From assembly GCA_963842855.1 (NCBI GenBank), contig CAWJHW010000004.1, positions 328,684 to 392,683 of the forward strand: DNA of 64,000 bases, written 5' to 3'. Shown here piece by piece: positions 7,234 to 57,315 of this stretch (within the stretch, counting starts at the first letter, position 1; every line of letters begins with the position of its first letter). Below the pieces are notes generated by a model. That model worked only from the letters and a program-made list of their open reading frames with translations, was not told the DNA's origin and ran no database searches. This stretch comes from an uncultured Methylomirabilota bacterium (GTDB lineage: Bacteria > Methylomirabilota > Methylomirabilia > Methylomirabilales > 2-02-FULL-66-22). The position numbers and the translations under genes were made by a program.

Positions 7234-8373
7234 TTACTTGACGGAGAACTTGTACATCGTTCTGCCAGAAAACCACTCGCCGGCCTTGATCACGGTCGTG
7301 GGGAAAGCCGGCTTGTTGGGAGAATCGGGGAAGCGCGACGCTTCCATGTTAAAGCCCGAGCGGAAGATGAACGTGGAGCCCTTGCCGACATCGCGGGGGG
7401 CCTTTCCCTCGAGGTTGTTTCCGGTATGGACCTGCAGGCCTGGCTCGGTCGTATAGACTTCCATGAAACGGCCAGACCCCGGTTCCCACGCAATGGCCGC
7501 AAGCGAGAACTCATTGGGGGTCTTCTTGTTGAGCACCCAATGATGGTCATAGCCGCCGGCGAACTTGAGCTGGTCGTAGTCAGTCTGGATGCGGGCGCCG
7601 AAGGTGGTCGGCGTCTGGAAATCCATCGGGGTGCCTTTCACGGACTCGAGCTGCCCCGTCGGAATCAGACCCTTGTCTATGGGAAGGAATCGGCTGGCAT
7701 TGATAAAGATCACGTGGTTGAGGATTTCGCTGCCGAGGTTGCCGGAGAGATTGTAGAACCCGTGGCTGGTGAAGTTCCCGACGGTGTTCTTATCCAGCGC
7801 GTAGGCCTGATAATCGACCACGAGGGCATTATCCTCGGTCACTTGATACAACACGCGGGTTGCCAGCGTGCCGGGGTAGTTCTCTTCGCCATCCTTGTAG
7901 GTATAGAACATCTCGACGCTGGACTCATTAATCTGGTGCGCGTCATAGACGCAGAACCGCGACCCCTTCTGCCCGCCGTGCAGGCTGTTTTCGCCTTGGT
8001 TTTTCGCGAGCTGATATTCCTTGCCGTCCAGCGTGAACTTGGCGCCTCCGATGCGGTTGGCGTAGCGGCCGACGAACGCGCCCATTGACCCCTGCCCGTC
8101 CATCGCCTTGTCGATGCTCTCATACCCTTGAACCACATCGGCGAATTTCCCCGTCCTGTCGGGCACCATGACCTGTTCGATCTTCGCCCCGTAGTTGGTG
8201 ATCTTCACCACCATGCCTTTGCCGTTCTTGATGGTGTAGAGATCAACCTGCTTGCCGTCCACAATCTTCCGGTACATGTCGCTTGTGGGTTCAATGTACC
8301 CGCCCTGCTGAGCGAAACCAAGCTTACAACCCACCACCACCAGCACCAAAGCCAATAACACCCTTTTCACCAT
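7234..8373 (-). CDS. galM: aldose 1-epimerase (galactose mutarotase), secreted/lipoprotein form
   Basis: ATG at 8373 with an AAGGAGG SD. The N-terminus MVKRVLLALVLVVVGC is signal/lipobox-like. GRYANRIGGAKFTLDGKEYQLAKNQGENSLHGG is typical of the aldose epimerase family. The track ORF extends to 8589 without support. Confidence 0.85.
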   Translation of the reverse strand: MVKRVLLALVLVVVGCKLGFAQQGGYIEPTSDMYRKIVDGKQVDLYTIKNGKGMVVKITNYGAKIEQVMVPDRTGKFADVVQGYESIDKAMDGQGSMGAFVGRYANRIGGAKFTLDGKEYQLAKNQGENSLHGGQKGSRFCVYDAHQINESSVEMFYTYKDGEENYPGTLATRVLYQVTEDNALVVDYQAYALDKNTVGNFTSHGFYNLSGNLGSEILNHVIFINASRFLPIDKGLIPTGQLESVKGTPMDFQTPTTFGARIQTDYDQLKFAGGYDHHWVLNKKTPNEFSLAAIAWEPGSGRFMEVYTTEPGLQVHTGNNLEGKAPRDVGKGSTFIFRSGFNMEASRFPDSPNKPAFPTTVIKAGEWFSGRTMYKFSVK

Positions 8374-9362: not shown

Positions 9363-9629
9363 GGCTGTGAGCGTAACCGTCTGCCTACGAAGTCGCGTGC
9401 TGCCACTGAATACCCTTCGATTCGTGAAGGATACCCGGAATGGCAAGGACTTAGGTGGGCGAGAGTGGCAGATCGGCCATCGGGTGAGAGGAGGTCTTCG
9501 CTCACTTTGCATCCTCCGCTCCTCCCTACAGATGCCCTGCAGGGCCTTGACTGGGACCGCCTTCCGGGATAGTATATTCGCGGTCGAACGAGGATGCGGG
9601 CAATCCGATGGCAGAGGAGGTACAGGGCG

Positions 9630-10103
9630 ATGACACGGAACCGCTGGATTCGACTTGGGCTCTTGGCCTTCCTCGGGAGCGGTCTGGCCGCCTGCGGCCC
9701 CGAGGGAGGGCTGGGGCTTTCAGGCTCCACCCCCGAGCAGTATCCTCCCCCCGGATTCGCGCACCAGCGCAATTACATGGTGTTGGAACTCTATTGGAAC
9801 TGTACGCAGCCAACGCCCGACAGATTGCTGCTGCAGGGGGTCGCCGTCAACGTGGTGGAACCGGAGGTGCGCCTTTACGAGTTGACTGTGGTGGGAGTGG
9901 ACGCCCACGGCGCTACCGTCTCCGAAGCCACCGGCACGGTGCGCCAATTCGTGCTCCGTACGATGCAATCCACGCCCATGGAGGTGGAGGTACGGACGAC
10001 GGGGCACGAGGTCCGGTTCGATTTGTTGTACCGGTATGACTCCCCCTCACACGGAGGGGGGGAATGGGCGAGCTGCCCGCCGGGGCGCCCGCGGTGCGGC
10101 TAG
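9630..10103 (+). CDS. lipoprotein of unknown function (paralog of 11531..12112)
   Basis: MTRNRWIRLGLLAFLGSGLAAC is a signal peptide plus lipobox. It shares YPPPGFAH, ELxWNCTxPxPDxLLLxG, VGVDxxGATVxE and RFDLxYxY with the paralog. Confidence 0.65.
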   Translation: MTRNRWIRLGLLAFLGSGLAACGPEGGLGLSGSTPEQYPPPGFAHQRNYMVLELYWNCTQPTPDRLLLQGVAVNVVEPEVRLYELTVVGVDAHGATVSEATGTVRQFVLRTMQSTPMEVEVRTTGHEVRFDLLYRYDSPSHGGGEWASCPPGRPRCG

Positions 10104-10700: not shown

Positions 10701-11423
10701 CTACTGGCTCAGCATCAAGACCCCCTGCATGGGGTCAAGCTGCACGTGGAACCGCGAGAGGAAAGTGTTGCCCAGCAGGCCCGCCACCTGAGAGCCCCCG
10801 GGCAGGTCGAGCACCGCGACCAGCACGTCCCGCGCCTCGGCCCCGCCCACCTGGATGGACTCCACGCTGGCAACGGGGGCGCGGATTATGCCCGAGACGG
10901 TGGCGATGGTCACCATCGGCGAGCCGGCGCCGAAGGAGATGCCCAGCTCCTGCGCCAGCCCCGCCGAGATGGTGGCATAACTGGCGCCCGTGTCCACGAC
11001 GAACAGGGCCTCGCGGCGCCCGTTCACCAGGGCGCGCACGAGAAAGGCATTGCCCGCGCGGATGAGGGGCACGGCGACCTTCCAGCTCTGCGAACTCGGC
11101 AACTCGGCGAAACCGCCCAGGGTCACGTCCACCTGCGCCGTGACCCCTGCCCACACGGTCACGGCCCGGCTGGAAGAGGTGAAGCCCTGTTTGGAGACGT
11201 TCAGACGGTAGTTCCCGGGAGGCACGCGGCTGAAGGTGAACCGCCCCTGGCTGTCGCTACGGACGCTGCCCACACCCTCCAGGACAACGTCCGCCCCCTC
11301 CAGCAGGACGTTGTTCTGGGAGGCCACGCTGCCCATCACCGCCCCCACCGAGGCCGAGTCCTGCGCCCGAGCCGGGGTTGGCAGGAACAGCAACGCTGCC
11401 AGAGCTGCCACCAATGCCCGCAC
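10701..11423 (-). CDS. secreted retropepsin-like (clan AA) aspartic protease with CarboxypepD_reg-like N-domain
   Basis: GTG at 11423 is preceded by GGAGGA. VRALVAALAALLFLPTPARA is a signal peptide. GRFTFSRVPPGNYRLNVSKQGF is a carboxypeptidase-regulatory-like fold motif. ALFVVDTGASYATIS contains the DTGA catalytic motif of retropepsin-like proteases. Confidence 0.65.
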   Translation of the reverse strand: MRALVAALAALLFLPTPARAQDSASVGAVMGSVASQNNVLLEGADVVLEGVGSVRSDSQGRFTFSRVPPGNYRLNVSKQGFTSSSRAVTVWAGVTAQVDVTLGGFAELPSSQSWKVAVPLIRAGNAFLVRALVNGRREALFVVDTGASYATISAGLAQELGISFGAGSPMVTIATVSGIIRAPVASVESIQVGGAEARDVLVAVLDLPGGSQVAGLLGNTFLSRFHVQLDPMQGVLMLSQ

Positions 11424-11530
11424 GCGGTCCTCCGACGTTCGGGAGGATAAGCAGAGATCAGGAGCGCTTATCGACCATTGCCGTTCCTTGGCCGGCTGTC
11501 GGTTGTCGGTTTTCCCTTGTGCAATGCGCG

Positions 11531-12112
11531 CTAGCGCGCCCGGTGCATCGTCTCCGAGCACACATCCCAGACCATGAACCGAATCGGTGGTACCTGGGCC
11601 AGCAGGAATGGGGTGGAGGACACGAGCCGCACAGGGGGCGCCCCGGTGGGAAGGGAGCCGCTCCGTTGCCCGTCACCGCTGTCGCCCGGTTCCTGATACT
11701 GGTACTGGTAGAACAGATCGAAGCGGGTCTCGCGCCCCGTCGGCCGCAGGGCCAGTTGAAAGGGGGTGGAGCCCATCATGCCGAAGATGAGGTCTCGCGC
11801 CGCCGCGCTGGTCTCGGTCACGGTAGCGCCGCGCGAGTCCACCCCCACCAAGTCGAACTCCAGGAAGCGAATGTCCGCTCCTGACCACGGGTTGAACGCC
11901 CTCCCCTCCAGCAGCAGCGTGTCGGGCGCTGGCCGCGTACAGTTCCAGAAGAGCTCCACCGCCGGGGACGACACCTCATGGGCGAACCCGGGGGGAGGGT
12001 AGGGCGTGGGGGGTGTGGTCCGCAGCGCTCGCCCCCCCTCCGCAGCGCAGGCGGCCAGGCTGACCCCCAGGAGTACCAACAACCCGGCACGAGTCAGACA
12101 GATCCCCTTCAT
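11531..12112 (-). CDS. lipoprotein of unknown function (paralog of 9630..10103)
   Basis: MKGICLTRAGLLVLLGVSLAAC is a signal peptide plus lipobox. It has the same conserved blocks as 9630..10103. Confidence 0.65.
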   Translation of the reverse strand: MKGICLTRAGLLVLLGVSLAACAAEGGRALRTTPPTPYPPPGFAHEVSSPAVELFWNCTRPAPDTLLLEGRAFNPWSGADIRFLEFDLVGVDSRGATVTETSAAARDLIFGMMGSTPFQLALRPTGRETRFDLFYQYQYQEPGDSGDGQRSGSLPTGAPPVRLVSSTPFLLAQVPPIRFMVWDVCSETMHRAR

Positions 12113-12144
12113 CTCCCACACCTCCTCCGCGGCCGCCGCTTCCC

Positions 12145-12414
12145 TCAGGTGGGCACCGTGTGTGCTGTTCTCGCAGTTCCTCGGACGGCGGGGACATGCT
12201 GATAGACCGCCAGGGCGACCCCACTGCCCAGCAGGGCCCCCGCCAGAACGTCAGAGGGAAAATGGGCCCCCAGGAGAATGCGCGACAGCCCGACCAGCGC
12301 GGCCACGCCCACGAAGCCAACCGCCTGCCGCGGATACCAGGCGGCCAGGACGACCGCGGTTGCGAAGGCCGTCGTGGCATGCCCCGAGGGGAACGACGCA
12401 TACGCAGCAGCCAA
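12145..12414 (-). pseudogene. C-terminal fragment of a PAP2-family phosphatase
   Basis: It contains PAP2 motifs PSGH and SRILLGAHFPSD but lacks the N-terminal KxxxxxxRP motif. An in-frame TGA lies just upstream of the TTG used by the track. The 5' end abuts the repeated 320 nt leader. Confidence 0.6.
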
Positions 12415-12726
12415 TCGCTCTCCTCATCGCAGCACCCCCATGAACCTCCTGGACTCGGCTCCCTCACGCAGCTGCCCAGCCTGAGGGAAACCAGGTGGAT
12501 ACACTCCAGGATACCTGGAGGCAATACCTGCGACAGAGGCAAGGCCACTTCCAAGACAAGTTACGGCCCTGGGACCCGAAATGTTTCAGGGGGGCCCCGA
12601 AGCTCGATCCTCCGTCCCATCGAAAAGATTGAGCGTGGTTCGCACGAATCCGCCTCATCCTGCCTCACCCCCTGAAATTTCACTGAGACGCACGATTGAC
12701 CGATCTCGGATCGAGTCGTTGCGGAC
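12407..12726 (-). repeat. copy 1 of ~320 nt repeated leader (second copy 50004..50322)
   Basis: It aligns by eye over its whole length with 50004..50322, with scattered substitutions and few indels. In both copies it ends in ATGAGGAGAGCGATTGGCTGC (MRRAIGC). Confidence 0.85.
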
Positions 12727-13113
12727 GAGTGCGTCCAGCGAAGGCTAGTCTGCTCAGTGGGGGATAGTTCCACCGGGGGAAGAGTCAGGACCCCCGTAGC
12801 TTGAGTTGCCTCCGTGGAGGAAACGAACCGGAGGAAGCCAACTGACCAAGCCATCCTTGTTAAAGAGGGACCCGGCCGTTTCTGCGGTGTCAAGGTAAAG
12901 TTCTCCTTGCGACGTTGAAACGCCGTGCGTTCGTATTGTTGCCCGCTCCACCGGGGTGCCCCTCCCGTTGGATGCTTCCCCGCTCCATCGTAGTGGTGTA
13001 AATGGGGGGTTGCGGCTTTAGTTGTCGCTCCTCCCGATTCCGGAGACCCACCGCAACGTGGAGAGCCTCGGCATCCATTAATCGGGCTTCACCGCCGGCG
13101 GCTCGAAAACGAG

Positions 13114-27556: not shown

Positions 27557-27694
27557 TCAGAGATTGGTGGTGAAGGCCTGCTGGCCCTGGCCGGCTAGGG
27601 CCGCGACCGTGGCAGCGGCCAGCTCCGCGTCGTGGGCGTGGTCCAGGACGAAGGCCACAATCAGCAACGCGGCCTCTAGCCCACGGGACCTCAT
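27557..27694 (-). CDS. small protein (45 aa), last gene of receiver/anti-sigma module
   Basis: Its ATG overlaps the upstream stop (ATGA). The sequence is MRSRGLEAALLIVAFVLDHAHD... The analogous small ORF at 47794..47976 follows the paralogous anti-sigma gene in the same way. Confidence 0.35.
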   Translation of the reverse strand: MRSRGLEAALLIVAFVLDHAHDAELAAATVAALAGQGQQAFTTNL

Positions 27695-28146
27695 GGCGCG
27701 TCACCCTCCAGCACGGCGGCCAGCACGAGATCCGATTGAGGGGCTGCGACACCGAATGCGATCTCATCACTCAAGGACCAGTCATCCGTTGGTAGGAGGC
27801 TGATCGATGGTGGGACCGCGACAAACTGATTCAGTAGGACGAGTCCGGCCACCAGAGCCGCGAAGGCGGGGACGAGGCCCCACGCAGGGCGCCATGGATC
27901 CGCCGTCCTCGGTGCCGGGAGGTGCCCGACCGGAAGGGCCCCGAGGACGCGGTCCACAAACCGCGGCGGTAGCTCCGGCGCGTCGGCCAGCACCGCGAGC
28001 AACCCCCGGGTCATCCGCAGGGCCGCCAGGGTGCGGCGACAGGCCGGACACGCCGCCAGGTGCCGCTGGATCTCGGCGGGGAGCTGAGCCGGAGGGCGCG
28101 AGGCAAGGTCGTGCCTCCTCTTACCGACCTGTCGGCACGTGCTCAT
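27691..28146 (-). CDS. zf-HC2 anti-sigma-factor-like membrane protein
   Basis: The H-x3-C-x2-C motif (HLAACPAC) is present. There is one central TM (WGLVPAFAALVAGLVLL). It is a paralog of 47973..48431. Confidence 0.7.
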   Translation of the reverse strand: MSTCRQVGKRRHDLASRPPAQLPAEIQRHLAACPACRRTLAALRMTRGLLAVLADAPELPPRFVDRVLGALPVGHLPAPRTADPWRPAWGLVPAFAALVAGLVLLNQFVAVPPSISLLPTDDWSLSDEIAFGVAAPQSDLVLAAVLEGDAP

Positions 28147-28754: not shown

Positions 28755-29190
28755 CCGAGGGCACCCCCCACCATCACTCCCTGGTTCCGCCAGATCTCCG
28801 AAATCGGCCGCATGGCCGTCGGGGGTATGGGAGCAGCATGAGAAAAACCCGGCAGGTTTCACTGCGGCGTAGGTGAGGCCCCACCATCCCCCGTGGCGTC
28901 CTGCGAAATCTTTGGCCTGGTTCAGGAACACCATCTACCACTACGGTGCCGGCGACCGCTATGTTTCGGGACGCGGCGCATTATCTGCGCAAAAGGCGCA
29001 TGAGTTCCTCTTGGACTCGTCGTCAGACTCCCCCCGCAGGCGCGTCCGAACCCTGTCAGGCGAGACTATTCACTCCCATTCGGGCCGGCAAAGCCTCCAA
29101 GTGGTACTCGTGATGGCGGCCGACCGACATCAGCGTGAGAACCGATGAAGCTTTTGGGGACCGCAGTCCCGCTCCGCCAGGGTTAACCCC

Positions 29191-29832
29191 TCACGCCGTG
29201 CTTTCCTGGGCCCTCAGTGCGTTGGTCAGAGGCACGCGGCGAATCAGGCGGGCCTGCTCCACGTCCAAGAGGCCTTCTCGCCTCCCCCAGTCGGCGATGT
29301 CCGCCCAGGTGAGGGCCTCCGCGCGGTTCGAGCTCCTCGCGCCTGTCCGGTCGGCGCAGACCCGCCGAGCAATGTGAAGGACCAGGGGGTCTGAGCCTTC
29401 AACGAGGAGGCGGCGGATCAGGTTGCCCTGCTGTTGCCGATCCCGCCGCAGGGCCTCGGCGGTTGGCTGCCCCTGCGTTGCGACGATGCTGTCCACGGCC
29501 TCACGGAGCTGCACCCCCGAGAGAGGCTTGCGGAGCACATCGGCCACGCGGCCCACCTCTTTCTGGTGGAGGGCGGCCTCGCGCTGCCACGTGATGGCCA
29601 GCACAGGAATGTGCGCCGTCTCGGGATGGCTCTCCAAGCGGGCCAGCAATTCCTCTCCTCGCACATCAAGTAGCTCTAGGTCGAGCACGATTACATCCGG
29701 CTGCTCTCCGGCCTCGCGGAGGGCCGCCTGGGCAGTGGACGCCAGGGTGGGGAGATGTCCCGCCTGGCGTAGGGTGCGTACCATCTGTCGGGCCAGCACC
29801 CCGTCCTCTTCCACGATTAAGATCGCCGCCAA
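29191..29832 (-). CDS. response regulator: receiver domain plus C-terminal domain of unknown function
   Basis: The likely TTG start gives (M)AAILIVEEDG, matching the reconstructed MAAILIVEDDE of the IS-disrupted paralog. The receiver domain shows DVIVLDLELLD, VLAIT and LRKP. The C-terminal region of about 90 aa has no recognisable HTH. Confidence 0.65.
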   Translation of the reverse strand: MAAILIVEEDGVLARQMVRTLRQAGHLPTLASTAQAALREAGEQPDVIVLDLELLDVRGEELLARLESHPETAHIPVLAITWQREAALHQKEVGRVADVLRKPLSGVQLREAVDSIVATQGQPTAEALRRDRQQQGNLIRRLLVEGSDPLVLHIARRVCADRTGARSSNRAEALTWADIADWGRREGLLDVEQARLIRRVPLTNALRAQESTA

Positions 29833-30783: not shown

Positions 30784-31188
30784 TCAGATCGCGCGGGCAG
30801 GGGTACTAGGCGGCTCATCGCCTGGTGCAGGTGAGGGGAGGGAGGCGCGGTGTATGTCCACGCGGGCACGGATCCTCGTGAGCCGTTCACAAGAGATGGC
30901 TGGAACGGCGACCGGACAGCGAGAAAAACCCGTGCAAGACTGTTGAAGGACTACCAGGGCGTGCAGGTGGCCCAGGGCCTCCTGGACCGCAAATGCCCCG
31001 TGACGCATGATCCCCTCCGCCTCAGCCACGGTGGGCTGCGAGGGGATGGGGGGCTGGAAGATGCGCTTGTACAAGTCGGAGCCGTCGAGATCGAGCACCT
31101 CGAAGACCATGAAGACCCCGACGGCTGCAAGTGAAATTAGAACTACCACCCACCAGGCCGGGGATCTCGAGGGAAGCAGCCGCCTCAT
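30784..31188 (-). CDS. hypothetical membrane-anchored protein (134 aa)
   Basis: N-terminal TM AWWVVVLISLAAVGVFMVF. No domain recognised. Confidence 0.35.
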   Translation of the reverse strand: MRRLLPSRSPAWWVVVLISLAAVGVFMVFEVLDLDGSDLYKRIFQPPIPSQPTVAEAEGIMRHGAFAVQEALGHLHALVVLQQSCTGFSRCPVAVPAISCERLTRIRARVDIHRASLPSPAPGDEPPSTPARAI

Positions 31189-31294: not shown

Positions 31295-31940
31295 ATGCCG
31301 AGTAGCCCCGGGGACTTTCACCCCGAGGCCCTCACAGATCCGTACGTGACTGTCTCCAGTCATACGGCTCGTGCCACTCATCGAAGGCTGCCGCCTTCTG
31401 CCGATCCCGGCGAGCTCCTCCCGTTACCGGTTGGCCCGGGGGAATCGGTGGAGTGACCTGCCCCCTTCGCTCCCCAGGCGTTACCCTGGTTCAACGCTAC
31501 TCCGGGGCAGTCCGCCCCTTGCCAGCGCATCGGTACTTTCGGCCTCGCGGGTCCGCCGCTTGGGCCTTTTCCCTTGGCATCACCGGCAAGGTTCTCACGT
31601 TCCATACAGGAGCCCAGATTGGGGTCACGCCACCTATACACCGGACACCACATGGCCAGTAACCAGGTTCCCGCCATGCTGCTCCCAGACCGAGGGTGCG
31701 AGTCTGGTTTTGATGTCGTCTAAAGGCTTTCGATGCGTCAGCAGTGGTTCGCTTGCGCTCGTCTCCCCAACCCCCACCTGACATGATCACCGTCACGCCT
31801 TTTCCCCTGACGCTCACCACCACAGCTTTTGGCTGCAGCAGCTCAGGGTGGTTTGGAGCCTCTGCCTGTACAGCGGCTCCGAAGGGCCCTCCTTCATCTC
31901 CTGTACAGCAGGCACCCCATGGTGCGTCGTGACGCAACAC
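31295..31940 (-). mobile_element. group II intron ribozyme, apparently ORF-less (about 650 nt)
   Basis: Canonical domain V lies at 31337..31370. Domain VI follows as GAG-GGCC-TCGGGG [TGAAAGT] CCCCGG-GGCT-A-CTC, with a bulged branch-point A 8 nt before a terminal AT (3' end at 31295). No reverse-transcriptase ORF lies between the 5' region and DV. The 5' boundary is uncertain because no exact GUGYG was found (GUGUUG lies at 31940). Confidence 0.7.
31337..31370 (-). ncRNA. group II intron domain V
   Basis: The minus strand reads GAGCCGTAT-GACTG-GAGA-CAGTC-ACGTACGGATC. This gives the AGC triad, a 2-nt bulge context, a GNRA-like loop, and the 34 nt length of the DV consensus. Confidence 0.85.
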
Positions 31941-32252
31941 CCCCGGGCCTCCTGGCCGGTACCCCTTCGTAGACTATAATACGCGACTACCCCCAGTTGT
32001 GTTTCAGAGGATGGAGAAGATTCTGTGGACGGCGGAGGAGCATCAGATCGGGCGGCCGCTGGTTTCCTCTGGATCCAGCTCCTAAGGTGGATAATTCGCG
32101 TCGACCGGCGCCCCCGTCCCGAAACGCTCCCATGAGCCGCGAGCGCCGGAGTACGAGCACCATCGGTCGCGCCGCGTCAGTCCTTCCGCACTGCGACATC
32201 GGGACGGCTCATTCCGGGCTGGCCATGGGCACCGTCAGCATGGATACGCGCG

Positions 32253-32474
32253 TCAGTATCGACATGTTTCACCCGTGGTCCGGAACGCTTCGATACGATG
32301 CCTTCCTCGACCATGCTCTTCGCAAGGAAGCAAGCGACAACGCGAGAACGGACGGTGCCATTGCGGATCACGGCTCCCCCATAGCCACCCGAGGCTGACG
32401 ATCACCGCAGCAATCAGCACGCCGGTCGAAGACGGCTCATTCAGAATCATGGAAAGCTGGACGCTATTCATCAT
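32253..32474 (-). CDS. small hypothetical protein, hydrophobic N-terminus
   Basis: GGGAGGA SD before ATGATG, 12 nt after the upstream stop. The N-terminus is VLIAAVIVSLGWLWG. The C-terminal half is Arg-rich and may be out of frame. Confidence 0.3.
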   Translation of the reverse strand: MMNSVQLSMILNEPSSTGVLIAAVIVSLGWLWGSRDPQWHRPFSRCRLLPCEEHGRGRHRIEAFRTTGETCRY

Positions 32475-38386: not shown

Positions 38387-38965
38387 TACTCTCCGCCGCT
38401 TCGTGCGCTGCCGCGGTCCCCTAGGCCAGCTCCCCCCTCATCCGACCTGGAGACAACCGTAGCCACGGAGCTTCCCCTGATGAAGCCACACCCAGCCGGA
38501 ACCCTGCGGAATGTTGGCAAATCAATAATCCAGCGGCGGGATGAGTGGTGGGGTTCTCAGTGAGACCCCGCGCGCTTTGACCCCCTCTCCCGGCAATCGA
38601 GATGCCGGGGAAAGTAATTGTCCGCCCCCGAGCCACCTTCCACATAGACTACCACATAGACAATTTACAGGCCACAGGCTGCATTTGTTTCAGGAGCCAT
38701 ACACACGGCCCGTCACACGTGAGGGTTCCTCCCACAAACGGGAGATCCCCCGCTGGGGCTGCTCTCCCAAAAGTGTCTGGTGCTAAGTACTCGAATTCAC
38801 GGTTCTGCACGTGCTAGGCCGTGCAATGGTTGTTTCCCGTTTTCCACCTACGTGGAGGGAGGGGTAGCGCGGGTGGCCCCCCCGATGGCGTCAGCCGAGA
38901 GCGCCCGGAGCCCCCGCCCTTGCCGTGACTCCCACGGCTGATCTTCCGTGATCCCTTGCTCTTCC

Positions 38966-45988: not shown

Positions 45989-47530
45989 TCACTCTCTGCT
46001 TCCCGAAGACCTCTCCAGTCCGCGGCTAGGCCGTTCGTCCTGGGTAACGCACCGGGCCGCGCGTCTCATTCCCTCCTGGGAATGATGGGCTGACCCGGCG
46101 CGGCGAGCGGTGCCGGCACTGAGAACGGTTCCCCCGCCCCTCAGCAGAGCCTTCCGATTCGTCGGGCATGAGCGTCGTTCGTTCGGCCTCATCCAGCACA
46201 GCCCGCGCCCGCCAAGGCTGGGGCTGTTCGGTGGCTTTACCCAGGAAGCGCCGACCATATCCCCCGCGGCACTGGTGTCACGGATCCAGTCGCCATATCT
46301 TTCGTAGCGCAGCGCGTCGATGGGATCGAGGAAAGCCGCCTTGTGCGCGGGATAGTAGCCAAAGAAAATCCCGATGAGAGCTGCCGAGCCGAAGGCCACC
46401 GCGATGGACGCCGGCGTGATCAGCGTGGACCAGTGGGCCAGCATGGCGATGAGAGTGGACCCGCCCACGCCCAGGAGGATGCCGACGATCCCCCCGATCA
46501 GGGCCAGCGTCATCGCCTCGATCAAAAACTGCCCCAGGATGTCGCGGGCGCGGGCGCCCACCGCCATCCGCAGGCCGATCTCCCGCGTCCGCTCCGTCAC
46601 CGACACCAGCATGATATTCATGATCCCGATGCCGCCGACGAGGAGGGAGACTGACGCAATGGCCCCGAGCAGCAACGTCATGGTCCGGCTGCTCTCGGCC
46701 TGCGCGGCAAAGGTCTCGGCAAGGTTGCGCACGTCAAAGTCGTTATCCTGGAACGGTTGGAGGTGGTGCCGCTGCCGGAGGAGGTCTACCACCTGCTGTT
46801 GAATGTCCGAGAGGAGGTCGGCTGACGCGGCCTTGATCTGGATTTGCCCGACGAACCGCGCGTTCGCCTGGCTCACCCCCAGGACGCGTTTCTTGGCCGT
46901 GGACAGGGGGATCAGCACCACATCATCCTGATCCTGGCCCCAACTGGATTGGCCCTTCCTCGTAAGCAGGCCGATGACCGTGAAGGGCACCTTCTTCATG
47001 CGGATGATCTGGCCGATGGGGTCGCCGTCGCCGAAGAGGTTCTCCTTCACCGTCTGGCCCAGGACGGCCACCTTGGTGGCGCCCTCCAGGTCTGAGGCTG
47101 TAAAGAAGCGCCCCGTCGCCAGGTCCCAATCCCGGATCACGAGGTAGTCCGAAGCGGTCCCTTGGATCGCGGTGGACCAGTTCTGATTCCCGAAGACGAT
47201 CTGGGCGCCCCCCCGCAGGGAGCCGCTGGCGGCCACCACCCCGGGGATCTCGATCGCAATAGCCTTCGCGTCGTCCTCGCTCAGCGTTTGCGTGGAGCCG
47301 GTCCCCATCCGCATCCCCCCGCTCGTGGCGGCGCCGGGGAGGACGATCAGGAGATTGGAGCCGATGCTGGCAATCTGCTCCTCGATGCGGGCGGCCGCCC
47401 CGCTCCCCACGGCCACCATGGCGATGACCGCCCCCACGCCGATGATGATCCCGAGCATCGTCAGGGCGGAGCGCAGTTTGTTCACCCGGAGGGCCCGCAG
47501 GGCGATCCTCACACTCGCAAGCACGTACAT
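45989..47530 (-). CDS. MacB-type ABC permease with lost stop codon (103-aa non-homologous C-terminal extension)
   Basis: The FtsX/MacB_PCD pattern is as in 34833..36206 and ends at the family terminus DPIDALRYE (E codon 46301-46303). AGA follows where the paralog has a stop, and the ORF runs on to 45989. Confidence 0.8.
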   Translation of the reverse strand: MYVLASVRIALRALRVNKLRSALTMLGIIIGVGAVIAMVAVGSGAAARIEEQIASIGSNLLIVLPGAATSGGMRMGTGSTQTLSEDDAKAIAIEIPGVVAASGSLRGGAQIVFGNQNWSTAIQGTASDYLVIRDWDLATGRFFTASDLEGATKVAVLGQTVKENLFGDGDPIGQIIRMKKVPFTVIGLLTRKGQSSWGQDQDDVVLIPLSTAKKRVLGVSQANARFVGQIQIKAASADLLSDIQQQVVDLLRQRHHLQPFQDNDFDVRNLAETFAAQAESSRTMTLLLGAIASVSLLVGGIGIMNIMLVSVTERTREIGLRMAVGARARDILGQFLIEAMTLALIGGIVGILLGVGGSTLIAMLAHWSTLITPASIAVAFGSAALIGIFFGYYPAHKAAFLDPIDALRYERYGDWIRDTSAAGDMVGASWVKPPNSPSLGGRGLCWMRPNERRSCPTNRKALLRGGGTVLSAGTARRAGSAHHSQEGMRRAARCVTQDERPSRGLERSSGSRE

Positions 47531-47793: not shown

Positions 47794-47976
47794 TCAGGGG
47801 CTAACGGCAGACGGCGCTTGTTGGGCCTGGGCTAAGACGCCGCCGCTTTCCCGATCGGCGCGATCACGGTCAACACCACTGCCCAGTGAGATCATTCCGC
47901 TCGACGTGGCACCGGCGGCCGTGCCCAGCAGGAAGGCGAGCAGCAGGAGCAGGGCCCCTTGTACTCGCGGTTTCAT
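47794..47976 (-). CDS. small secreted/membrane protein (60 aa)
   Basis: Its ATG overlaps the anti-sigma stop (ATGA). MKPRVQGALLLLLAFLLGTAAG is signal-like. Confidence 0.4.
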   Translation of the reverse strand: MKPRVQGALLLLLAFLLGTAAGATSSGMISLGSGVDRDRADRESGGVLAQAQQAPSAVSP

Positions 47977-48431
47977 GTCCCGCCTCCTTCCATCACGGCC
48001 GTGAGGATCGCGTCCGGTTCCGGCGGCGAGGCCTCCAGGACGATGCGCTCGCTGGCTGATAGCCCTTCCATCGGGAGGAGTCCGATCGGGCCGGGAACCG
48101 TGCTGTCCTGGAATTGGAAGAGGATCAGGAGGAGGGCGACCGTGGCGGCGAAGACCGGCACCAGCCCCCACCCCAGGCGCCACATCTCCGCCTCGGGATG
48201 CGAGCGCCTCCGAGCAGGCAACGCGGCCAGGACCCGGTCCGCGAAATCGACGGGAGGCTCGGGTGCATCCGCCGCCGCCGCAAGCAGGCCTCGGCCCAGT
48301 CGGGCGGCTGCCAGCGCTTGAGCACAGGCCGGGCATCCCGTCAGATGCTCCCGGATACCCGCAGGCATCTCCGTCGCAGAGACCGCTGCCAGCTCGCTGA
48401 TTCTCTTCTCAACCTCTCCGCACGATTTCAT
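47973..48431 (-). CDS. zf-HC2 anti-sigma-factor-like membrane protein (paralog of 27691..28146)
   Basis: HLTGCPAC (H-x3-C-x2-C) and a central TM (WGLVPVFAATVALLLIL). It is collinear with the paralog. Confidence 0.7.
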   Translation of the reverse strand: MKSCGEVEKRISELAAVSATEMPAGIREHLTGCPACAQALAAARLGRGLLAAAADAPEPPVDFADRVLAALPARRRSHPEAEMWRLGWGLVPVFAATVALLLILFQFQDSTVPGPIGLLPMEGLSASERIVLEASPPEPDAILTAVMEGGGT

Positions 48432-48510: not shown

Positions 48511-49083
48511 CTAGTTCACTTTGCCATCCGAGTGGCTGGCGCTCTTCAGCATGGTCAGGGCGTCGGTCACGATGTCCTGCTGGCCGTCATTGGTGTAAAT
48601 CGTGAAGGGCACCAACAAGACCCCCACCGGAAGGATGCCTTGCGTCATGTGCTTGTAGTCGCCCGGTTTGGGCGCCGGATCGGTCACGGAGAAGTAATAC
48701 CCAACTCCCGCCGTGCCTTCGAACTCCAGGATCTCGATCGTCTTCTCGGCGGCCAGCAACCTGACCTGCTCTGCCGCCCGCTGCACTAACCGCTGTAACG
48801 CTTCGCGATCCGGATTGGGGGCGTCTTTCTCGGTCGGCCAGAGCGGCGTCAAGACGACGCCAAACGGCGCCCCGGATTTCGACGTGAAGACGATCGTCTG
48901 GAAGAGCCGATCGCGGTCCTGCTCGAGTTCCTCCTTCCACAACGTGGGCACTTGCAACTGCAGACGTCCGTGATCCGTGAGCGCATACTGCCGGTCGGCC
49001 GTGTCCGCGGCATGCACTGGGGTCCCAGCCATACAGATCAGGACGAACAGGATGGCGCCAAGCAAGCGGTAGGACTTGATCAC
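48511..49083 (-). CDS. secreted protein of unknown function (190 aa)
   Basis: GTG start after AAGGAGGG. The signal peptide is LLGAILFVLICMAGTPVHA. No domain recognised. Confidence 0.55.
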   Translation of the reverse strand: MIKSYRLLGAILFVLICMAGTPVHAADTADRQYALTDHGRLQLQVPTLWKEELEQDRDRLFQTIVFTSKSGAPFGVVLTPLWPTEKDAPNPDREALQRLVQRAAEQVRLLAAEKTIEILEFEGTAGVGYYFSVTDPAPKPGDYKHMTQGILPVGVLLVPFTIYTNDGQQDIVTDALTMLKSASHSDGKVN

Positions 49084-49124
49084 GAAGGGCCCTCCTTAGG
49101 TGACCTGCGCTCTGCTGGAAAACA

Positions 49125-49651
49125 CTAAGGCCCGGGCGGCGGCCCGGGGGGTGCCGGGAAGTAGCCAGGTGGGGGGGCGGCGGAGGGGGCACGGCCAGAG
49201 GTTGCCGAGGCCCCCGCACCACCCCGGGGACCTGGTTCCCCTTCGCGTACATGCACTGCTGGTACGCCATGTCGTACCGGCGCTGCGCATGCCATCCGGC
49301 CGCCTGATCGGCATTGGCGCCCGCCGCCGCCCCCGTGAGGAGGCCGGCGCCGGCGCCGATCGCCGCCCCGGTGCCCGCATGGCCGGCCAAGGCCCCGAGC
49401 CCTGCCCCGAGCCCCGCGCCAACGGCGGTGCCCACCGCCGCGCCGACCGCCGTATTCTGGGCCGCGGGCGCGCCTGGCGGCCCCACCTGCTGGGCCGCCC
49501 ACTGGCGGCAGGTGGCATCCTCGGCCTGGAATTGCTCAAAGGGTTTCCCCGGGGCGGGGAGCACCATCACGCTCGGGCCGGTCGGCAGCGTCGCACAGCC
49601 GCCCAGCGCCACCGCCGCGCTCCCGAGGAGCAGGACCCATCGTCTCTGCAT
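49125..49651 (-). pseudogene. glycine-zipper lipoprotein, frameshifted in a C7 run
   Basis: AAGGAG SD. MQRRWVLLLGSAAVALGGC carries a lipobox and is followed by the Gly-zipper AVGAAVGTAVGAGLGAGLGALAG. RRYDMAYQQCMYAKGNQVPG is the family C-terminal block. The expected tail PPPGYFPAPPGPPPGP-TAG (stop 49125) is in another frame (track ORF 49125..49502). Confidence 0.6.
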
Positions 49652-49667
49652 CGCGCCATCTCCTTTC

Positions 49668-50024
49668 CTATCTCGGCGGGGTTGCCGGCGGCACGACCTG
49701 CATCCAGCCGTTCGGACACTGTTGGACGTACGGATAGTACCCCTGCGGGTTCTGACAGTAGTACCAGTAGGCCGGCGCCTGGGGGGCCGGGGCGGGCTGC
49801 TCATAGACCGGAGGCGGTTGGACGACCACGGGGGGGGCCGGATACGGGTAGTAATAGGGAGACCCCCACCACGGGCTCGGTCCCCAGTAGCCTGGTCCCA
49901 CCCCGAGAGGGACGTCGAAGTTGAAAAAGACGTGCCCCCCCGCCTCGCTGGGGATCGGACTGGCCAGCAAGAGGACCAGGAGAACCAGGACCATCAGCAC
50001 ACTGCAGCCAATCGCTCTCCTCAT
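49668..50024 (-). CDS. small secreted Pro/Tyr/Trp-rich protein
   Basis: MRRAIGCSVLMVLVLLVLLLASP is a signal peptide. The C-terminus is YWYYCQNPQGYYPYVQQCPNGWMQV. It is the first gene downstream of the repeated leader copy 2. Confidence 0.55.
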   Translation of the reverse strand: MRRAIGCSVLMVLVLLVLLLASPIPSEAGGHVFFNFDVPLGVGPGYWGPSPWWGSPYYYPYPAPPVVVQPPPVYEQPAPAPQAPAYWYYCQNPQGYYPYVQQCPNGWMQVVPPATPPR

Positions 50025-50322
50025 TTCAGCACCCCCCTGAACCTCCTGGACTTGGATCCCTCACGCAACTGCCCAGCCTAACGGATACAAGTGGTTACAC
50101 TCCAGCATACCTAGAGCCAATTCCTGCTACAGACGCAAGCCCACTTTCAACACAGGTTACGGCCCAGGGACCCGAAATGTTTCATGGTGGTCCCGAAGCT
50201 CTGTCCTCCGTCCCATCGAAAATATTGAGAGTGGTTCGCAAGAATCCGCCTCATCCTGCCTCACGCCCTGAAATTTCACTGAGAAGCACGATTGACCGAC
50301 CTCGGATCGAGTCGTTGCGGAC
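50004..50322 (-). repeat. copy 2 of ~320 nt repeated leader
   Basis: See 12407..12726. Here it precedes an intact ORF that starts with the shared MRRAIGC codons. Confidence 0.85.
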
Positions 50323-50685
50323 CACCCGGGCGCGAGAATCCATGCTGCCAATCGGACAGTTCTGTCACACTCGGCTCGGGCTTGGGGCACAAAGAGGGAC
50401 GCCGACCTTCTCTTCCATCCTGCCGGGCGGAATATACACCCGCAACGGTCCCGTTTCAGTCGTCGCAGTGCTTTAGGTACGATCATGGTGATTCCGCATG
50501 AAAATCGCTTCGCATGCCGTCGGCATCAATCGGCACCAGCCTCGGAGTCTCCCGCCTCAACATGTGTGAGGACGCCATTCTTCGCCTGAAACGAAACCGG
50601 CAGGGGTTGCGTACTATAGAAAGGAATCGACTGAGCGGCATGGGGTCGCCGGGGGGTTTACCCTCGACAAAGAAAGGACCAGGAC

Positions 50686-51219
50686 ATGGTGACAAAGAAC
50701 GGACTACGGCATTTCGGATGGTGGGCAGCGGGCGCGCTGCTCATTCTCGGGATTGTGCTGGGCGCGCCTACGGGGGCCGGGGCCCAGCAGCCACCCACAC
50801 CCACACTTAAACAGCACTACTGGAACGAGATCCAGCAGAAACTCGGCCTGACCGCCGATCAGGTGACCACCCTCCAGAACCTTCTTGAGGCGAATCGGAC
50901 CACGATGCGCAACGACTTCCAGGTCGTGCAGACTGCCCACCAACAGATGCGAGTGGCCTGGAGCCATGCGAACGCCGGGGAGATCGCGAGCGCCGGCGCC
51001 GCGCTGCAGGCGGCCCGTGACAAGCTCTCCAATGATCGCTTGCAGGGGCAGTTGCACATCCTCAACGCGCTTGGACCGGATGTGTGGAAGCAGTGGACGG
51101 CGCTGCACAAGCACCACCGACGCGGGGGCCGCGAGTTCGGGAAGCACCACCGACGCGGGGGTTGCGAGTTCGGGAAGCACCAGCGACGCTGGGGCCGCGA
51201 GTTCGGGATGGGGATGTAA
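50686..51219 (+). CDS. periplasmic Spy/CpxP-like (LTXXQ-motif) protein with His/Arg-rich repeat tail
   Basis: Signal peptide, LGLTADQVTTLQNLL (LTxxQ), helical repeats, and three C-terminal 11-aa repeats KHHRRGGREFG. Confidence 0.6.
   Translation: MVTKNGLRHFGWWAAGALLILGIVLGAPTGAGAQQPPTPTLKQHYWNEIQQKLGLTADQVTTLQNLLEANRTTMRNDFQVVQTAHQQMRVAWSHANAGEIASAGAALQAARDKLSNDRLQGQLHILNALGPDVWKQWTALHKHHRRGGREFGKHHRRGGCEFGKHQRRWGREFGMGM
51109..51207 (+). repeat. 3 x 33 nt in-frame tandem repeat
   Basis: The units are 51109-51141, 51142-51174 and 51175-51207. They encode KHHRRGGREFG / KHHRRGGCEFG / KHQRRWGREFG. Confidence 0.85.
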
Positions 51220-51393: not shown

Positions 51394-51473
51394 AGTACGT
51401 GCTCGCCTATGTGCGGATCGCCCTGCGAGCCCTCCGCGGAAGTAAGCTGCGCTCCGCCCTGACGATGCAATGA
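51394..51473 (+). pseudogene. 5' fragment of a MacB-type permease gene
   Basis: YVRIALRALRGSKLRSALTMQ-stop matches the N-terminus SVRIALRALRVNKLRSALTMLG of 45989..47530 at both nucleotide and protein level. Only about 22 codons remain. Confidence 0.6.
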
Positions 51474-52553: not shown

Positions 52554-52804
52554 TTACCTACTCAAACTTCGATAGTTCCCGATGACATTGCGGAGTGGAG
52601 CCTTCAGGTAGTCCGTGGCCCCCATAACCCAAGTGTCAGCGGATCCGGCAGCCCTAGGTCGAGCAGGATAACGTCAGGGCGGTCTACGGCCTCATCGAGG
52701 GCCGACCGCGCATCGGGCGCGAGGATCGGGACGTGTCCGGCCTTTCGCAGGGTTCGCGCCATCTGCCCGGCCACCAATTCATCATCTTCCACGATTATTG
52801 ACAA
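52554..52804 (-). pseudogene. response-regulator gene (paralog of 29191..29832), IS-disrupted and internally deleted
   Basis: IIVEDDELVAGQMARTLRKAGHVPILA...DVILLDLGLPD aligns with the paralog. After LPD the frame breaks, and GATDYLKAPL (the receiver alpha4-beta5 motif) appears in another frame, implying an internal deletion. The first 4 codons lie at 53891-53902, beyond the IS. Confidence 0.7.
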
Positions 52805-53891
52805 TTGCGTAAATAATGGGACGATGGTACTCTACGATGCATGAGACCAAACGGCAGCCCCGCGGATCTGGAAGCGCGGCGCCGCCGGGCCGTCGGCCTC
52901 CTCGACAAGGGGCTCGGGGTGCGCGAAGTCGCCCGGCAGATTGGCTGCTCGCCCGCCTCGGTGAGCCGCTGGCAGGGCGAGGTGCGGAGCCGCGGCCCCG
53001 ATGCATTGCGGCCGAAGCCGGCCCCCGGGCGCCCGCCCCGGATCAGCGCCCGGCAGCGCGCCAAGCTGCTGCAGCTGCTGCTCAAAGGGGCCACCGCCCA
53101 CGGGTTCACCACCGACCTCTGGACCTTGCCGCGGGTCGCCATGGTCATTGCGCGGACCTTCGGGGTCACCTACCACCCCGCCCACGTGTGGAAGATCCTC
53201 CGCGGCGAGGGCTGGAGCTGCCAGAAACCCGAACGCCGGGCGAACGAGCGGGACGAGGCCGCCATCCAGCGGTGGCGCACCGCGCGCTACCCGCATATAA
53301 AAAAACGCCCGCCGCGCCGGTAGAGCGCTCGTCTTCGTGGACGAGAGCGGCTTCATGCTCCAGCCAGTGGTCCGCCGCACCTGGGCGCCCCGCGGCCGGA
53401 CGCCCCTCCTGCGACAGTGGGACCGTCGCGACCGCCTCTCGGCGATCAGCGCCCTCACCGTGGCGCCCCGGCGCCGCCGGTTCGGCCTCTACTGGGCCCT
53501 GCATCGTGCCAACATCCGAACCGCGGAAGTCCTCCGCTTCCTCCGGGCCCTCACCCGCCATCTCCCGCAGGGCTTCACCCTCATCTGGGATCGGGGACGG
53601 CCCCACCGGGCGGTCAGGGTACGGGATTGGCTCGCCGCTCGGGCCCCGCGCATCGTCGTGGAGTGGCTCCCGGCCTATGCCCCGGACTGCAACCCGGCCG
53701 AGCATGTCTGGGGCCACACCAAGTACGGGGACCTCGCGAACTTCGCGCCGACCGATCTCGACCAGCTGGAAGGCGCGGTGCTCACGTCCCTTACCCAGAC
53801 GCGCGGGCAGCGGGCGCTCCTCGCGGCCTTCTTCCGAGCGGCCGGCTTACGGATCTGAGGTGTATCATTACTTACGCAAGGATCAATAATA
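52794..53891 (+). mobile_element. IS630-family insertion sequence
   Basis: The 25 bp imperfect terminal inverted repeats match at 21/25: ATTATTGACAATTGCGTAAATAATG (left) and the reverse complement of CATTACTTACGCAAGGATCAATAAT (right). TA flanks at 52796-97 and 53888-89 are consistent with IS630 TA target duplication. The element encodes an HTH + DDE_3 transposase. Confidence 0.85.
52841..53858 (+). CDS. IS630-family transposase in two frames (orfA 52841..53323, orfB to 53858) joined at an A7 run
   Basis: orfA has an HTH (GLGVREVARQIGCSPASVSRW) and a second winged helix. orfB reads ALVFVDESGFMLQP...TWAPRG (first D), then IWDRGRPH (second D), then LPAYAPDCNPAEHVW (E). The frames differ by +1 at AAAAAAA 53299-53305. 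Confidence 0.85.
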
Positions 53892-55692: not shown

Positions 55693-56229
55693 CTAGAGTG
55701 CGCCCGGCCCGGACGCACGGCCTCTCTGCATCCAGCGGCGCCCCATGCCCCTCCGGAGGGAAAGCCACCCCTGCCATTGTTCCAGAGTGAACTTGGTGCG
55801 GAGGGTGAGCTGAGTCTGCAGGCGATCGTCGAACAGCTTGGCCTGCAGCGCCTTCACCTGTGTCGCCACCGCCTGGATGGCCGCCGGGTCGGTCGTCTGC
55901 TGCTCCAACAGCCCCCGGAGCTGCCGGCGGGCGGCGATCAGGTTCTGGATATCCGCCTGCGCTGCCATGCGCTGCGTTTGGAGCAGGGCTTGGATGTCCG
56001 TCCGCTCCTGATCAGTCAAACTCAGGCGTTCCTGTACCCGATGCCAGAAGATCTGCGCCATGGCGGCATGGTCCTCGGGCGTGAGGAGGCGCTCCTTTTG
56101 GGGCGGGGGCCCCGGGGGGGCCGCCGGCTGCCGGGCTAGCGCCGTTCCGGCCCCGCTCGAAGCCAGCCCGAGGAGCAGTGCTCCCGCTATGAGCCACCCG
56201 GAGTATCCAGTCCGTCCATTCGTTCGCAT
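55693..56229 (-). CDS. periplasmic Spy/CpxP-like (LTXXQ-motif) protein
   Basis: Signal peptide, LSLTDQERTDIQALL (LTxxQ), helical Gln-rich repeats. AAAGGAGGA SD. Confidence 0.65.
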   Translation of the reverse strand: MRTNGRTGYSGWLIAGALLLGLASSGAGTALARQPAAPPGPPPQKERLLTPEDHAAMAQIFWHRVQERLSLTDQERTDIQALLQTQRMAAQADIQNLIAARRQLRGLLEQQTTDPAAIQAVATQVKALQAKLFDDRLQTQLTLRTKFTLEQWQGWLSLRRGMGRRWMQRGRASGPGAL

Positions 56230-57315
56230 GCGGTCCTCCTTTGCCCGAAGATTGCATCAATTGCGACCGCGCGGCCGCATCATTCCATACATCTGTTATA
56301 TTACGCTTCTCTTGTTCCTTTTGTTTCACCTGGGAGGTCACATGCGCCCGGGGGGTGCCCGAGGAACGGATGGTCTTGAGCAATTTTCTGGAGGCAACAT
56401 GGTGGGAACAAGCCGCGGACCAATGGGACTCCCGGGCGACGTGCCGACCTCGACGAGCCGCTTGGAGTCTCGACCGGTGTTGGCGAAGCATGCCTTCGAA
56501 TACCCCCTGGTAAGCCCCGCTGCAAGAGGGAGGTCACCCGGGCGCGCTGTGACGGCGGAGCCGACTGTACCCCTCGACGCAGCACGCAGTGAGGATCGCG
56601 CGCTCGGGGGGAGTCGGGCAGCGGGAATCCGCCCAGCGTTCCACCAGGAACGTGGGAGAGTCCGGTGCCCCACAAAAGTATGGATACGATGAAGCGGGTG
56701 GATTATAATAAGCGTTTGAGAAAAATGCGGGGGGCCTTTCATGTGGCACGTCACGAGCGCTTCGATTATTTGGGGAACCCCGGAGGTGTTCGAAGGAGGC
56801 GTCCGCCAAAGGGTGGTGCCCGCGGGAGTTGCATGGCTCCGCTCCCTGCCTCGGAAATCTCAGGGGCGCCCACACTGCAACCCTTCGCAGGGGTCATTGG
56901 GGGTTCCGTGAAGGATGCATGGTATTTCTTCGGAGCAAAGGTAACCCCCTGCTGTAAGTCTTCATGAAACTTCCTCCTCTCGCTTTCCGTATAGGGGAAG
57001 AGGGCCCCGGATGCAGGGAGACGGCAAGTATTGGCCGGATTGGGGATGCTCGGTCCGAGGGTTGCCTCTCAGAGCAGAAGACTGCAACCATAGCGTCGAG
57101 CCTACGAGTGCTCCCGACCACAGCATCGGCCAGAATGTCCTGGAGTTCGTGTGCATCGCCGCACTCTGCGGCGATCGGGCACGCCTGGTGAGGCGGGTGA
57201 GGCATCACGTGCCAGACGTCCCCTTTGCCGGCCATGGTCGCATAATGAACCATGGGCGGGTCGCAGCGATTGGGATGTAGGCGGATCATGCGGCTGATGT
57301 GTTTTTCGTGAGGCC

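Follow-up and report, generated by a model that had tools for sequence, protein, structure and literature searches.

The two copies of a repeat of about 320 nt, found in the 64,000-nt stretch of Methylomirabilota DNA analysed here (the window), are a promoter with its 5′ leader and not an RNA element in its own right or a new RNA class. In the reading that we regard as probable, the promoter is of ECF type, copy 2 still serves as the upstream region of an envelope-type operon and copy 1 is the scar of a rearrangement, running into a truncated PAP2 phosphatase gene (Table 1). An ECF promoter regulon, promoter reuse and a gene remnant are all known kinds of thing, met here in a new instance, and nothing about them is conceptually new. 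The result removes one riboswitch candidate and supplies in its place TGAAAC-N17-CGTA, a testable promoter motif for a candidate ECF-type regulon in the poorly studied NC10/Methylomirabilota. The candidate regulon comprises genes for Spy/CpxP-like chaperones, an RND pump, glycine-zipper lipoproteins and anti-sigma-like proteins.

Table 1. Features of the two repeat copies, their surroundings and the promoter motif sites in the window
Feature	Position	Strand	Remarks
Copy 1	12404..12727	-	Same promoter, UTR and 7 codons as copy 2; rearrangement junctions on both sides
Copy 2	50001..50323	-	126 nt of upstream DNA, promoter, predicted 5′ UTR of ~125 nt and first 7 codons of the 118-aa gene
ECF-type promoter, copy 1	12560..12588	-	Hexamers intact, one spacer substitution; intact also in L095 and L098
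ECF-type promoter, copy 2	50156..50184	-	TGAAAC (-35), 17-nt spacer, CGTAAC (-10)
5′ UTR of copy 2 (start predicted)	50025..50150	-	Last ~100 nt (GYGTAACCAC...GTTTYCC...GGAGGTTCAGGGGGGTGCTGAAATG) sequence-conserved among relatives
118-aa secreted Pro/Tyr-rich protein, operon gene 1	49668..50024	-	YWYYCxxPxGYYPYVxxCPxGW motif, signal peptide
Glycine-zipper lipoprotein, operon gene 2	49100..49651	-	Pfam Gly-zipper_YMGG, E=1.3e-5
Anti-sigma-like protein, last operon gene	47973..48431	-	HxxxCxxC motif, no Pfam match
Relic ATG and 7 codons	12407..12427	-	Out of frame with the PAP2 remnant
5′-truncated PAP2 phosphatase gene	12145..12414	-	Pfam PAP2, E=1.2e-19, profile positions 49-126 of 130
196-aa lipoprotein gene	11531..12121	-	Downstream of copy 1; follows PAP2 in L106
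Internal group II intron fragment (D1-D4 region)	12755..12898	+	Rfam RF02003, 75.9 bits; 144 nt
Motif site	12587	-	Copy 1
Motif site	50183	-	Copy 2
Motif site	50588 (50587..50613)	+	73 nt upstream of Metal_resist/LTXXQ (Spy/CpxP-like) gene 50686-51219; divergent
Motif site	56327	-	73 nt upstream of the ATG of a Metal_resist/LTXXQ paralog
Motif site	56966	+	RND membrane-fusion/pump operon
Motif site	28967	-	Small gene, then response regulator, then anti-sigma-like gene
Motif sites	32270 and 32005	-	Adjoin an ORF-less group II intron

Global alignment of the two copies gives 287 identical positions out of 324 (88.6%), with 36 substitutions and one single-base indel, so that the repeat is much as the preliminary description had it, in two copies with few indels. 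The flanks are unrelated over the 60 nt beyond each end (20/60 and 14/60 matches). Transversions do predominate among the substitutions, 25 against 11 transitions, but the G/T and A/C changes that had been singled out (six of each) are not commoner than C/G changes (eight). In the frame of the ORF at 12561..12893 the substitutions fall 2/6/5 at codon positions 1/2/3; third positions are not favoured, as had been noted, the coding signature is absent and the segment is non-coding. Both copies terminate in ATGAGGAGAGCGATTGGCTGC; the ATG codons of copies 1 and 2 lie at 12427 and 50024, and the observation that each lies upstream of a start codon and takes in the first seven codons holds good.

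The limits of the repeat are nevertheless not natural ones. Two metagenome contigs share the mosaic in which copy 1 is embedded, L095 (93–100% identical) and L098 (~91%). In L098 the ATG and seven codons have been lost by a 25-nt deletion between GCTGCG direct repeats, and a further 49 or so upstream bases are held in common with copy 2; for this reason the 320-nt element is no natural unit, and the shared ancestral segment measured at least 372 nt. The boundary at 12727 is secondary and the start-codon relic is dispensable. Both ends of the 320-nt unit are rearrangement junctions, and the unit as such shows no independent conservation, its upstream 126 nt being common to copy 1, copy 2 and close orthologs only. 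The preliminary description had named a recent duplication with no independent conservation elsewhere as one finding that would overturn it, and this has proved half true.

What is conserved over longer distances begins with the promoter. An ECF-sigma promoter had been proposed for both copies, and the class was right although the hexamers were not. The GTAAC of the proposed GTAAC-N17/18-SSTCT is present, but it belongs to the end of a −10 element (CGTAAC) and not to a −35, and the promoter reads TGAAAC-N17-CGTA(AC). Promoters were assigned to the ECF class on an AAC-core −35, a CGT(A/C) −10 and a fixed spacing of 16–17 nt, all of which both copies possess, and the motif also recurs across a candidate regulon and is conserved in homologs. 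In the 64-kb window GAAAC-N15-18-CGTA has eight matches where 0.46 are expected, and none of 100 shuffled windows had more than two; the background rate of the motif is 0.016 per kb. The spacer is exactly 17 in all eight matches, T stands immediately before seven of them, and A or T after most.

Comparison of leaders leads to the same motif. The GAAAC and GTA columns are invariant in two alignments of homologous leaders (A2 and A4), and the motif is kept upstream of genes of the 118-aa family in L001, L011, L012, L014, L016, L094 and L100, where the flanks have diverged. The distant leaders compared were those of the type B loci, which have an HD-domain gene upstream (L001, L011, L012, L094, L100 and L104), together with L013, L015 and L014. 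They keep two blocks only, one being TGAAACATTT-N-CCGTAACCTGT and the other the last ~100 nt before the ATG. Two further promoter candidates were rejected. A sigma-54-like TGGC-N10-TGCT in copy 2 (TGGCTCTAGGTATGCT) has both dinucleotides destroyed in copy 1, is absent from the type B leaders and from L014, and was judged to be a chance occurrence; an arrangement in which the downstream GCGTAACC block would be the −10 of a second ECF promoter fails for want of an AAC-type −35 at the correct spacing.

The motif would be recognized by an ECF-class alternative sigma factor, encoded outside the window, that reads TGAAAC and CGTAAC 17 nt apart. A regular-expression scan and phmmer searches with RpoE/SigW found no ECF sigma gene in the window, and neither of the anti-sigma-like genes has a sigma neighbour. 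Transcription would be expected to start a few bases downstream of CGTAAC, giving a leader of ~125 nt. Other envelope-stress-type genes in the window have this motif upstream as well (Table 1), and so the operon behind copy 2 appears to belong to a regulon.

In the envelope-stress regulons of E. coli under Bae and Cpx, a Spy/CpxP-family chaperone occurs together with an MdtABC-type RND pump. The gene content here is similar, with two LTXXQ/Metal_resist genes and an RND efflux operon behind the motif, whereas control is apparently exerted through a sigma-factor promoter and not through response-regulator boxes. The closest promoter counterpart, among those of ECF (group 4) sigma factors, is that of sigma-W, the consensus of which has a spacer of 16. 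In Bacillus subtilis the ECF-class consensus is tGAAACnTTTt at −35, with CGTA at −10 for sigma-W (PMC5758882). As in these sigma-W-type promoters, TGAAAC is followed by ATTT at −35, CGTA stands at −10 and the spacer is fixed; the motif recurs before genes of envelope, efflux and periplasmic-chaperone type, and an anti-sigma-like gene lies within one of the operons. The differences are the 17-nt spacer, the NC10/Methylomirabilota host and a cognate sigma gene that is not in the window.

Copy 2 is the native copy, since its orthologs on contigs L004, L005, L010, L096, L099 and L102 are collinear with it on both sides, at 94–98% identity. These orthologous contigs come from NC10/Methylomirabilota metagenomes, and the closest genomes are likewise NC10/Methylomirabilota. 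The operon encodes, in order, the 118-aa protein, the glycine-zipper lipoprotein, a 190-aa protein and the anti-sigma-like protein, and the earlier statement that copy 2 heads an operon ending in such a gene can stand. Homologs of the 118-aa protein are numerous (2063 found); no Pfam family matched it, and an exact-sequence look-up of the protein in the window returned no record. In every related locus the glycine-zipper gene comes after the 118-aa gene. That the 118-aa protein might begin further upstream was considered and rejected, there being in the window an in-frame stop 13 codons upstream and no start codon between. The anti-sigma assignment of the last gene is weak: the cysteine motif listed in Table 1 suggests it, and a paralog at 27691-28146 has a weak zf-HC2 match (E=8.8e-4).

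Copy 1 lies in surroundings of a quite different kind. The PAP2 gene that follows it has retained the PSGH and SRxxxxxHxxxD motifs and is missing its first ~135 codons. In an NC10 genome (OY970067.1; locus L106) an intact 221-aa PAP2 gene lies directly upstream of the ortholog of the 196-aa lipoprotein gene, and homology of this locus to the window starts exactly at 12405, near PAP2 codon 135. Set against this intact ortholog, the PAP2 gene behind copy 1 is a remnant whose junction coincides with the end of the repeat. On the other side, a group II intron fragment adjoins copy 1 on the opposite strand and outside the repeat; it is present in L095 and absent from both L098 and copy 2.

The arrangement suggests that copy 1 is a second copy of the upstream region and the survivor of a rearrangement. 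The missing part would run from codon 8 of the 118-aa gene through about codon 135 of the PAP2 gene; the downstream junction falls within a short GCTGC-type repeat, and the sequence upstream of 12727 would later have been replaced by the internal group II intron fragment. The most economical source, judged from gene order, would be a deletion within a paralogous copy of the operon, formerly located upstream of PAP2. In L003 and L007 the 118-aa operon is followed by the glycine-zipper gene, an EF-hand gene and an FG-GAP gene, and in L106 the order is FG-GAP gene, 568-aa gene, intron, PAP2 and lipoprotein gene, all on one strand. The FG-GAP gene of L106 has 77% nucleotide identity to that of L003/L007 and lies on the same strand. 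Among the loci retrieved from the NC10 reference genome no 118-aa gene stands beside the FG-GAP...PAP2 block, and the proposed deletion is for this reason built on synteny combined across genomes. A segment of at least 372 nt may instead have been copied into PAP2.

The promoter of copy 1, apparently intact, points into the PAP2 remnant and the lipoprotein gene, and the chances that it still fires seem nearly even. The 196-aa lipoprotein gene is a possible beneficiary of the captured promoter. Taken further, copy 1 might be a functional promoter capture, retained for placing this gene and an aspartyl-protease-like gene (10701-11561) under the ECF regulon; we put this somewhat below an even chance. 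The promoter hexamers are intact in three lineages, those of the window, L095 and L098, and L098 has kept the promoter while dropping the useless ATG and seven codons. An independent fusion in the NC10 reference genome, at locus L105, joins a different promoter of the same TGAAAC-N17-CGTA type to an 86-nt PAP2 remnant followed by a second copy of the lipoprotein gene, and the L105 promoter is itself duplicated before a lipoprotein fragment; this parallel hints at selection for having the lipoprotein under the regulon. At ~10% divergence, however, the nine motif bases would remain unchanged by chance ~40% of the time, and a junk leader of 430 nt makes an awkward 5′ UTR. Nor does any segment of the copy 1 locus evolve more slowly than the rest, identity between the window and L098 being uniform at 87–92% over the upstream DNA, promoter, UTR, PAP2 remnant and lipoprotein gene. 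Substitutions in the lipoprotein gene between the window and L098 are distributed 17/14/14 by codon position, with no excess at the third. The uniform divergence and the lack of a third-position excess thus give no indication that copy 1 is under selection, and the entire copy 1 locus may be in decay.

Promoter reuse is a documented phenomenon, in which highly similar upstream regions, putative mobile promoters, precede non-homologous genes in one genome (PMC3575422). The present case resembles it in the 88.6% identity over 324 nt before the 118-aa gene on the one hand and before the PAP2 remnant and lipoprotein gene on the other, and in that similarity stops near the start codon. It differs in having two copies only, in that copy 1 appears to be a by-product of a deletion or fusion that also left a gene fragment, and in showing no sign of an active mobilizing mechanism. 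A more far-reaching proposal would have TGAAAC-N17-CGTA cassettes of NC10 relocated repeatedly together with scraps of genes, copy 1 and L105 as parallel adaptive captures, and the 3′ block of the leader as an undescribed signal that travels with them. We think this unlikely; if true, such relocation would rewire genes such as that of the 196-aa lipoprotein into an envelope-stress regulon.

The repeat had first attracted attention as a leader with conserved, hairpin-capable stretches, among them GGGAC...GTCCC, that could be matched to no riboswitch class. The second point is upheld: a search of Rfam 15, both at the gathering threshold and at E≤10, gave no match within either copy and returned noise only. 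The first fails, as GGGAC...GTCCC spans the −35 and lies upstream of the predicted transcription start, so that it would not be transcribed. We accordingly think it improbable that a structured cis-regulatory RNA in the leader, either a riboswitch-like sensor or an RBS-hiding hairpin, controls the 118-aa operon and was preserved by the duplication on account of its importance. Such an RNA would fit the conservation of the last ~100 nt before the ATG, found in all close and mid-distance relatives though the upstream genes differ. It would fit, too, a UUUCC segment able to pair with GGAGG, a consensus structure in which 92.6% of cells form pairs, and a 7-bp hairpin kept in both copies (GCUCUAG/CUGGAGU versus CUCCAGG/CCUGGAG) despite three substitutions.

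The folding results tell against a structured leader. The RNAalifold consensus of 12 distinct leaders reached only −6.8 kcal/mol (covariation term −0.26), and each of five covariation measures was reached by between 198 and 331 of 500 shuffles, a comparison of limited power with 12 fairly close sequences; the conserved structure that had been proposed is thus unsupported. The predicted fold of copy 2 is no more stable than those of shuffled sequences (z = −0.07), the corresponding values for copy 1 and L004 being −2.1 and −1.1, and the structures predicted for the three differ. In type B leaders 63 nt are inserted between the two conserved blocks, and the GTAACCAC block is lost in L014. The leader of L004 is of type A in its 5′ half and of type B in its 3′ half, and 76 nt before the ATG several contigs break off. 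Since the leaders are closely related and show signs of exchange between paralogs, sequence conservation by itself argues only weakly for structure and may reflect shared ancestry and gene conversion. With the riboswitches and structured 5′ leaders of Rfam the element has in common its length (~125–190 nt) and a sequence-conserved 3′ part; unlike them it has no family match, covariation or conserved fold, and its length is variable.

The conservation of the last ~100 nt of the leader is a point that counts against a promoter-only explanation. A conserved upstream ORF (MDRAPERGIRVLEV in L001/L004) was also considered for the leader and discarded, being absent from copy 2 and truncated in L012.

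That the repeat is a mobile element or part of one (a MITE, the end of an IS, or the 5′ portion of the group II intron next to it) is very improbable. Apart from the intron fragment beside copy 1, the idea draws on a region that is rich in fragments and has an IS630-like gene, and on several metagenome contigs that break within the leader, 76 nt before the ATG. Against it, the 64 kb contain two copies only, neither bounded by terminal inverted repeats or target duplications; a 31-mer taken from the upstream half of the repeat has no match in 185,579 species genomes, and the 11 metagenome matches represent three locus types only. L098 and copy 2 carry the repeat without intron sequence, and the intron match is on the opposite strand and beyond the repeat; the fragment being an internal piece of the intron, the further suggestion that the plus strand of the repeat is domain 1 of that intron was likewise rejected. 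Paralogous operons with the 3′ leader and genes in common account for the contig breaks. If copy 1 is the scar that we take it to be, paralogous operons of a regulon leave promoter-bearing scars after rearrangement, and these can mislead motif hunters and metagenome assemblers alike.

Finally, although both copies are traversed by open frames of 64 to 110 aa, a small protein encoded by one of them is the least credible of the alternatives, in view of the 2/6/5 distribution of substitutions over codon positions, of a ATGAGGCGGATT ORF starting within the repeat whose ends differ between the copies and whose differences are all amino-acid-changing, and of a ATGAGGCGG ORF whose length is 64 aa in copy 1 but 35 aa in copy 2, with every difference changing an amino acid.

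Besides the match in each copy of the ~320-nt promoter-leader repeat, the inferred ECF-type promoter motif TGAAAC-N17-CGTA occurs at six sites in the window, and a weaker one is also present (see table). Together with their genes, the six sites form a candidate ECF regulon, as judged from sequence, crowded into a single 64-kb window; no sigma gene to accompany them was found in those 64 kb. The site at 32005(-) probably lies within domain 1 of an ORF-less group II intron (31297-~32192(-)), which has the promoter-like site 32270 on one side and gene 30784-31188 on the other, and whose D1D4-2 and domains 5-6 are separated by only ~400 nt.

Motif sites, operon-border pieces, cassette copies and intron pieces (window coordinates unless a locus is named)
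Feature	Position	Strand	Context
TGAAAC-N17-CGTA site	28942-28967	-	before response-regulator/anti-sigma-like operon 28565-27691
TGAAAC-N17-CGTA site	31980-32005	-	
TGAAAC-N17-CGTA site	32245-32270	-	
TGAAAC-N17-CGTA site	50588-50613	+	before Spy/CpxP-like gene 50686-51219
TGAAAC-N17-CGTA site	56302-56327	-	before Spy/CpxP-like gene 55693-56229
TGAAAC-N17-CGTA site	56966-56991	+	before RND efflux operon, 57316 onward
Weaker motif site	near 38692	-	
97-nt piece (HD-domain gene 3' end)	L001 4483-4579		
97-nt piece	L012 4527-4623		
97-nt piece	L012 ~7587-7683		
OY970067.1 cassette copy	L105 2469-2590		
OY970067.1 cassette copy	L105 5826-5950		
Group II intron D1D4-2	31776-31895	-	ORF-less intron
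Group II intron domains 5-6	31297-31372	-	ORF-less intron
Internal piece of a group II intron, isolated (RF02003)	12755-12898	+	between ilvE and copy 1 of the repeat

The 45-aa ORF that follows the anti-sigma-like gene has a 3' end (27557-27653(-)) ~90% identical to that of the HD-domain gene preceding type B leaders, those with a 63-nt insertion. In locus L012, this 97-nt piece flanks the entire operon of the 118-aa secreted protein on both sides, an arrangement resembling an insertion of the operon accompanied by duplication of the piece. Metagenome contigs encoding an identical 118-aa protein carry an upstream half that is either type A, resembling copy 2, or type B (L004 versus L001; L006-L009), and several of them begin 76-90 nt before the ATG of its gene. 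The two kinds of upstream half and these contig starts point to paralogous operons with a common 3' leader and genes, as a result of gene conversion or assembly chimeras. The glycine-zipper reading frame of the window (48587-49804(-)) has no stop at 49100, where its orthologs end, and extends ~170 codons further, across the next gene; as homology to L001 ceases at 49135, the 3' end of the gene appears to have been replaced.

A further cassette of promoter and leader, which carries the TGAAAC-N17-CGTA motif, is duplicated in the NC10 genome OY970067.1 (79% over 124 nt). Downstream of one copy lie a PAP2 remnant and a complete lipoprotein gene; downstream of the other lies a lipoprotein 3' fragment. 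The comparison also covered L105 5884-6618 against L106 5884-6618. Within the window, paralogous lipoprotein genes at 9594-10103(+) and 11531-12121(-) converge on gene 10701-11561(-), which encodes CarboxypepD_reg and retropepsin-like aspartyl protease domains, and they share an inverted repeat (9779-9851/11891-11963). The 9594 paralog carries no ECF-type motif but a sigma-70-like promoter (TTGACT...TATATT).

A 74-nt inverted duplicate of the first ~25 codons of the MacB-like permease gene (51395-51468(+) and 47455-47528(-), 84% complementary) sits stranded between genes as another gene-start fragment. An IS630-like transposase (52841-53858(+)) is broken into two overlapping frames and adjoined by a response-regulator fragment (52604-52804) similar to 29665-29819. 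The isolated RF02003 fragment has a counterpart in the metagenome locus L095 (471-614), and it appears to be eroding, since it extends ~50 nt further in L095 than in the window.
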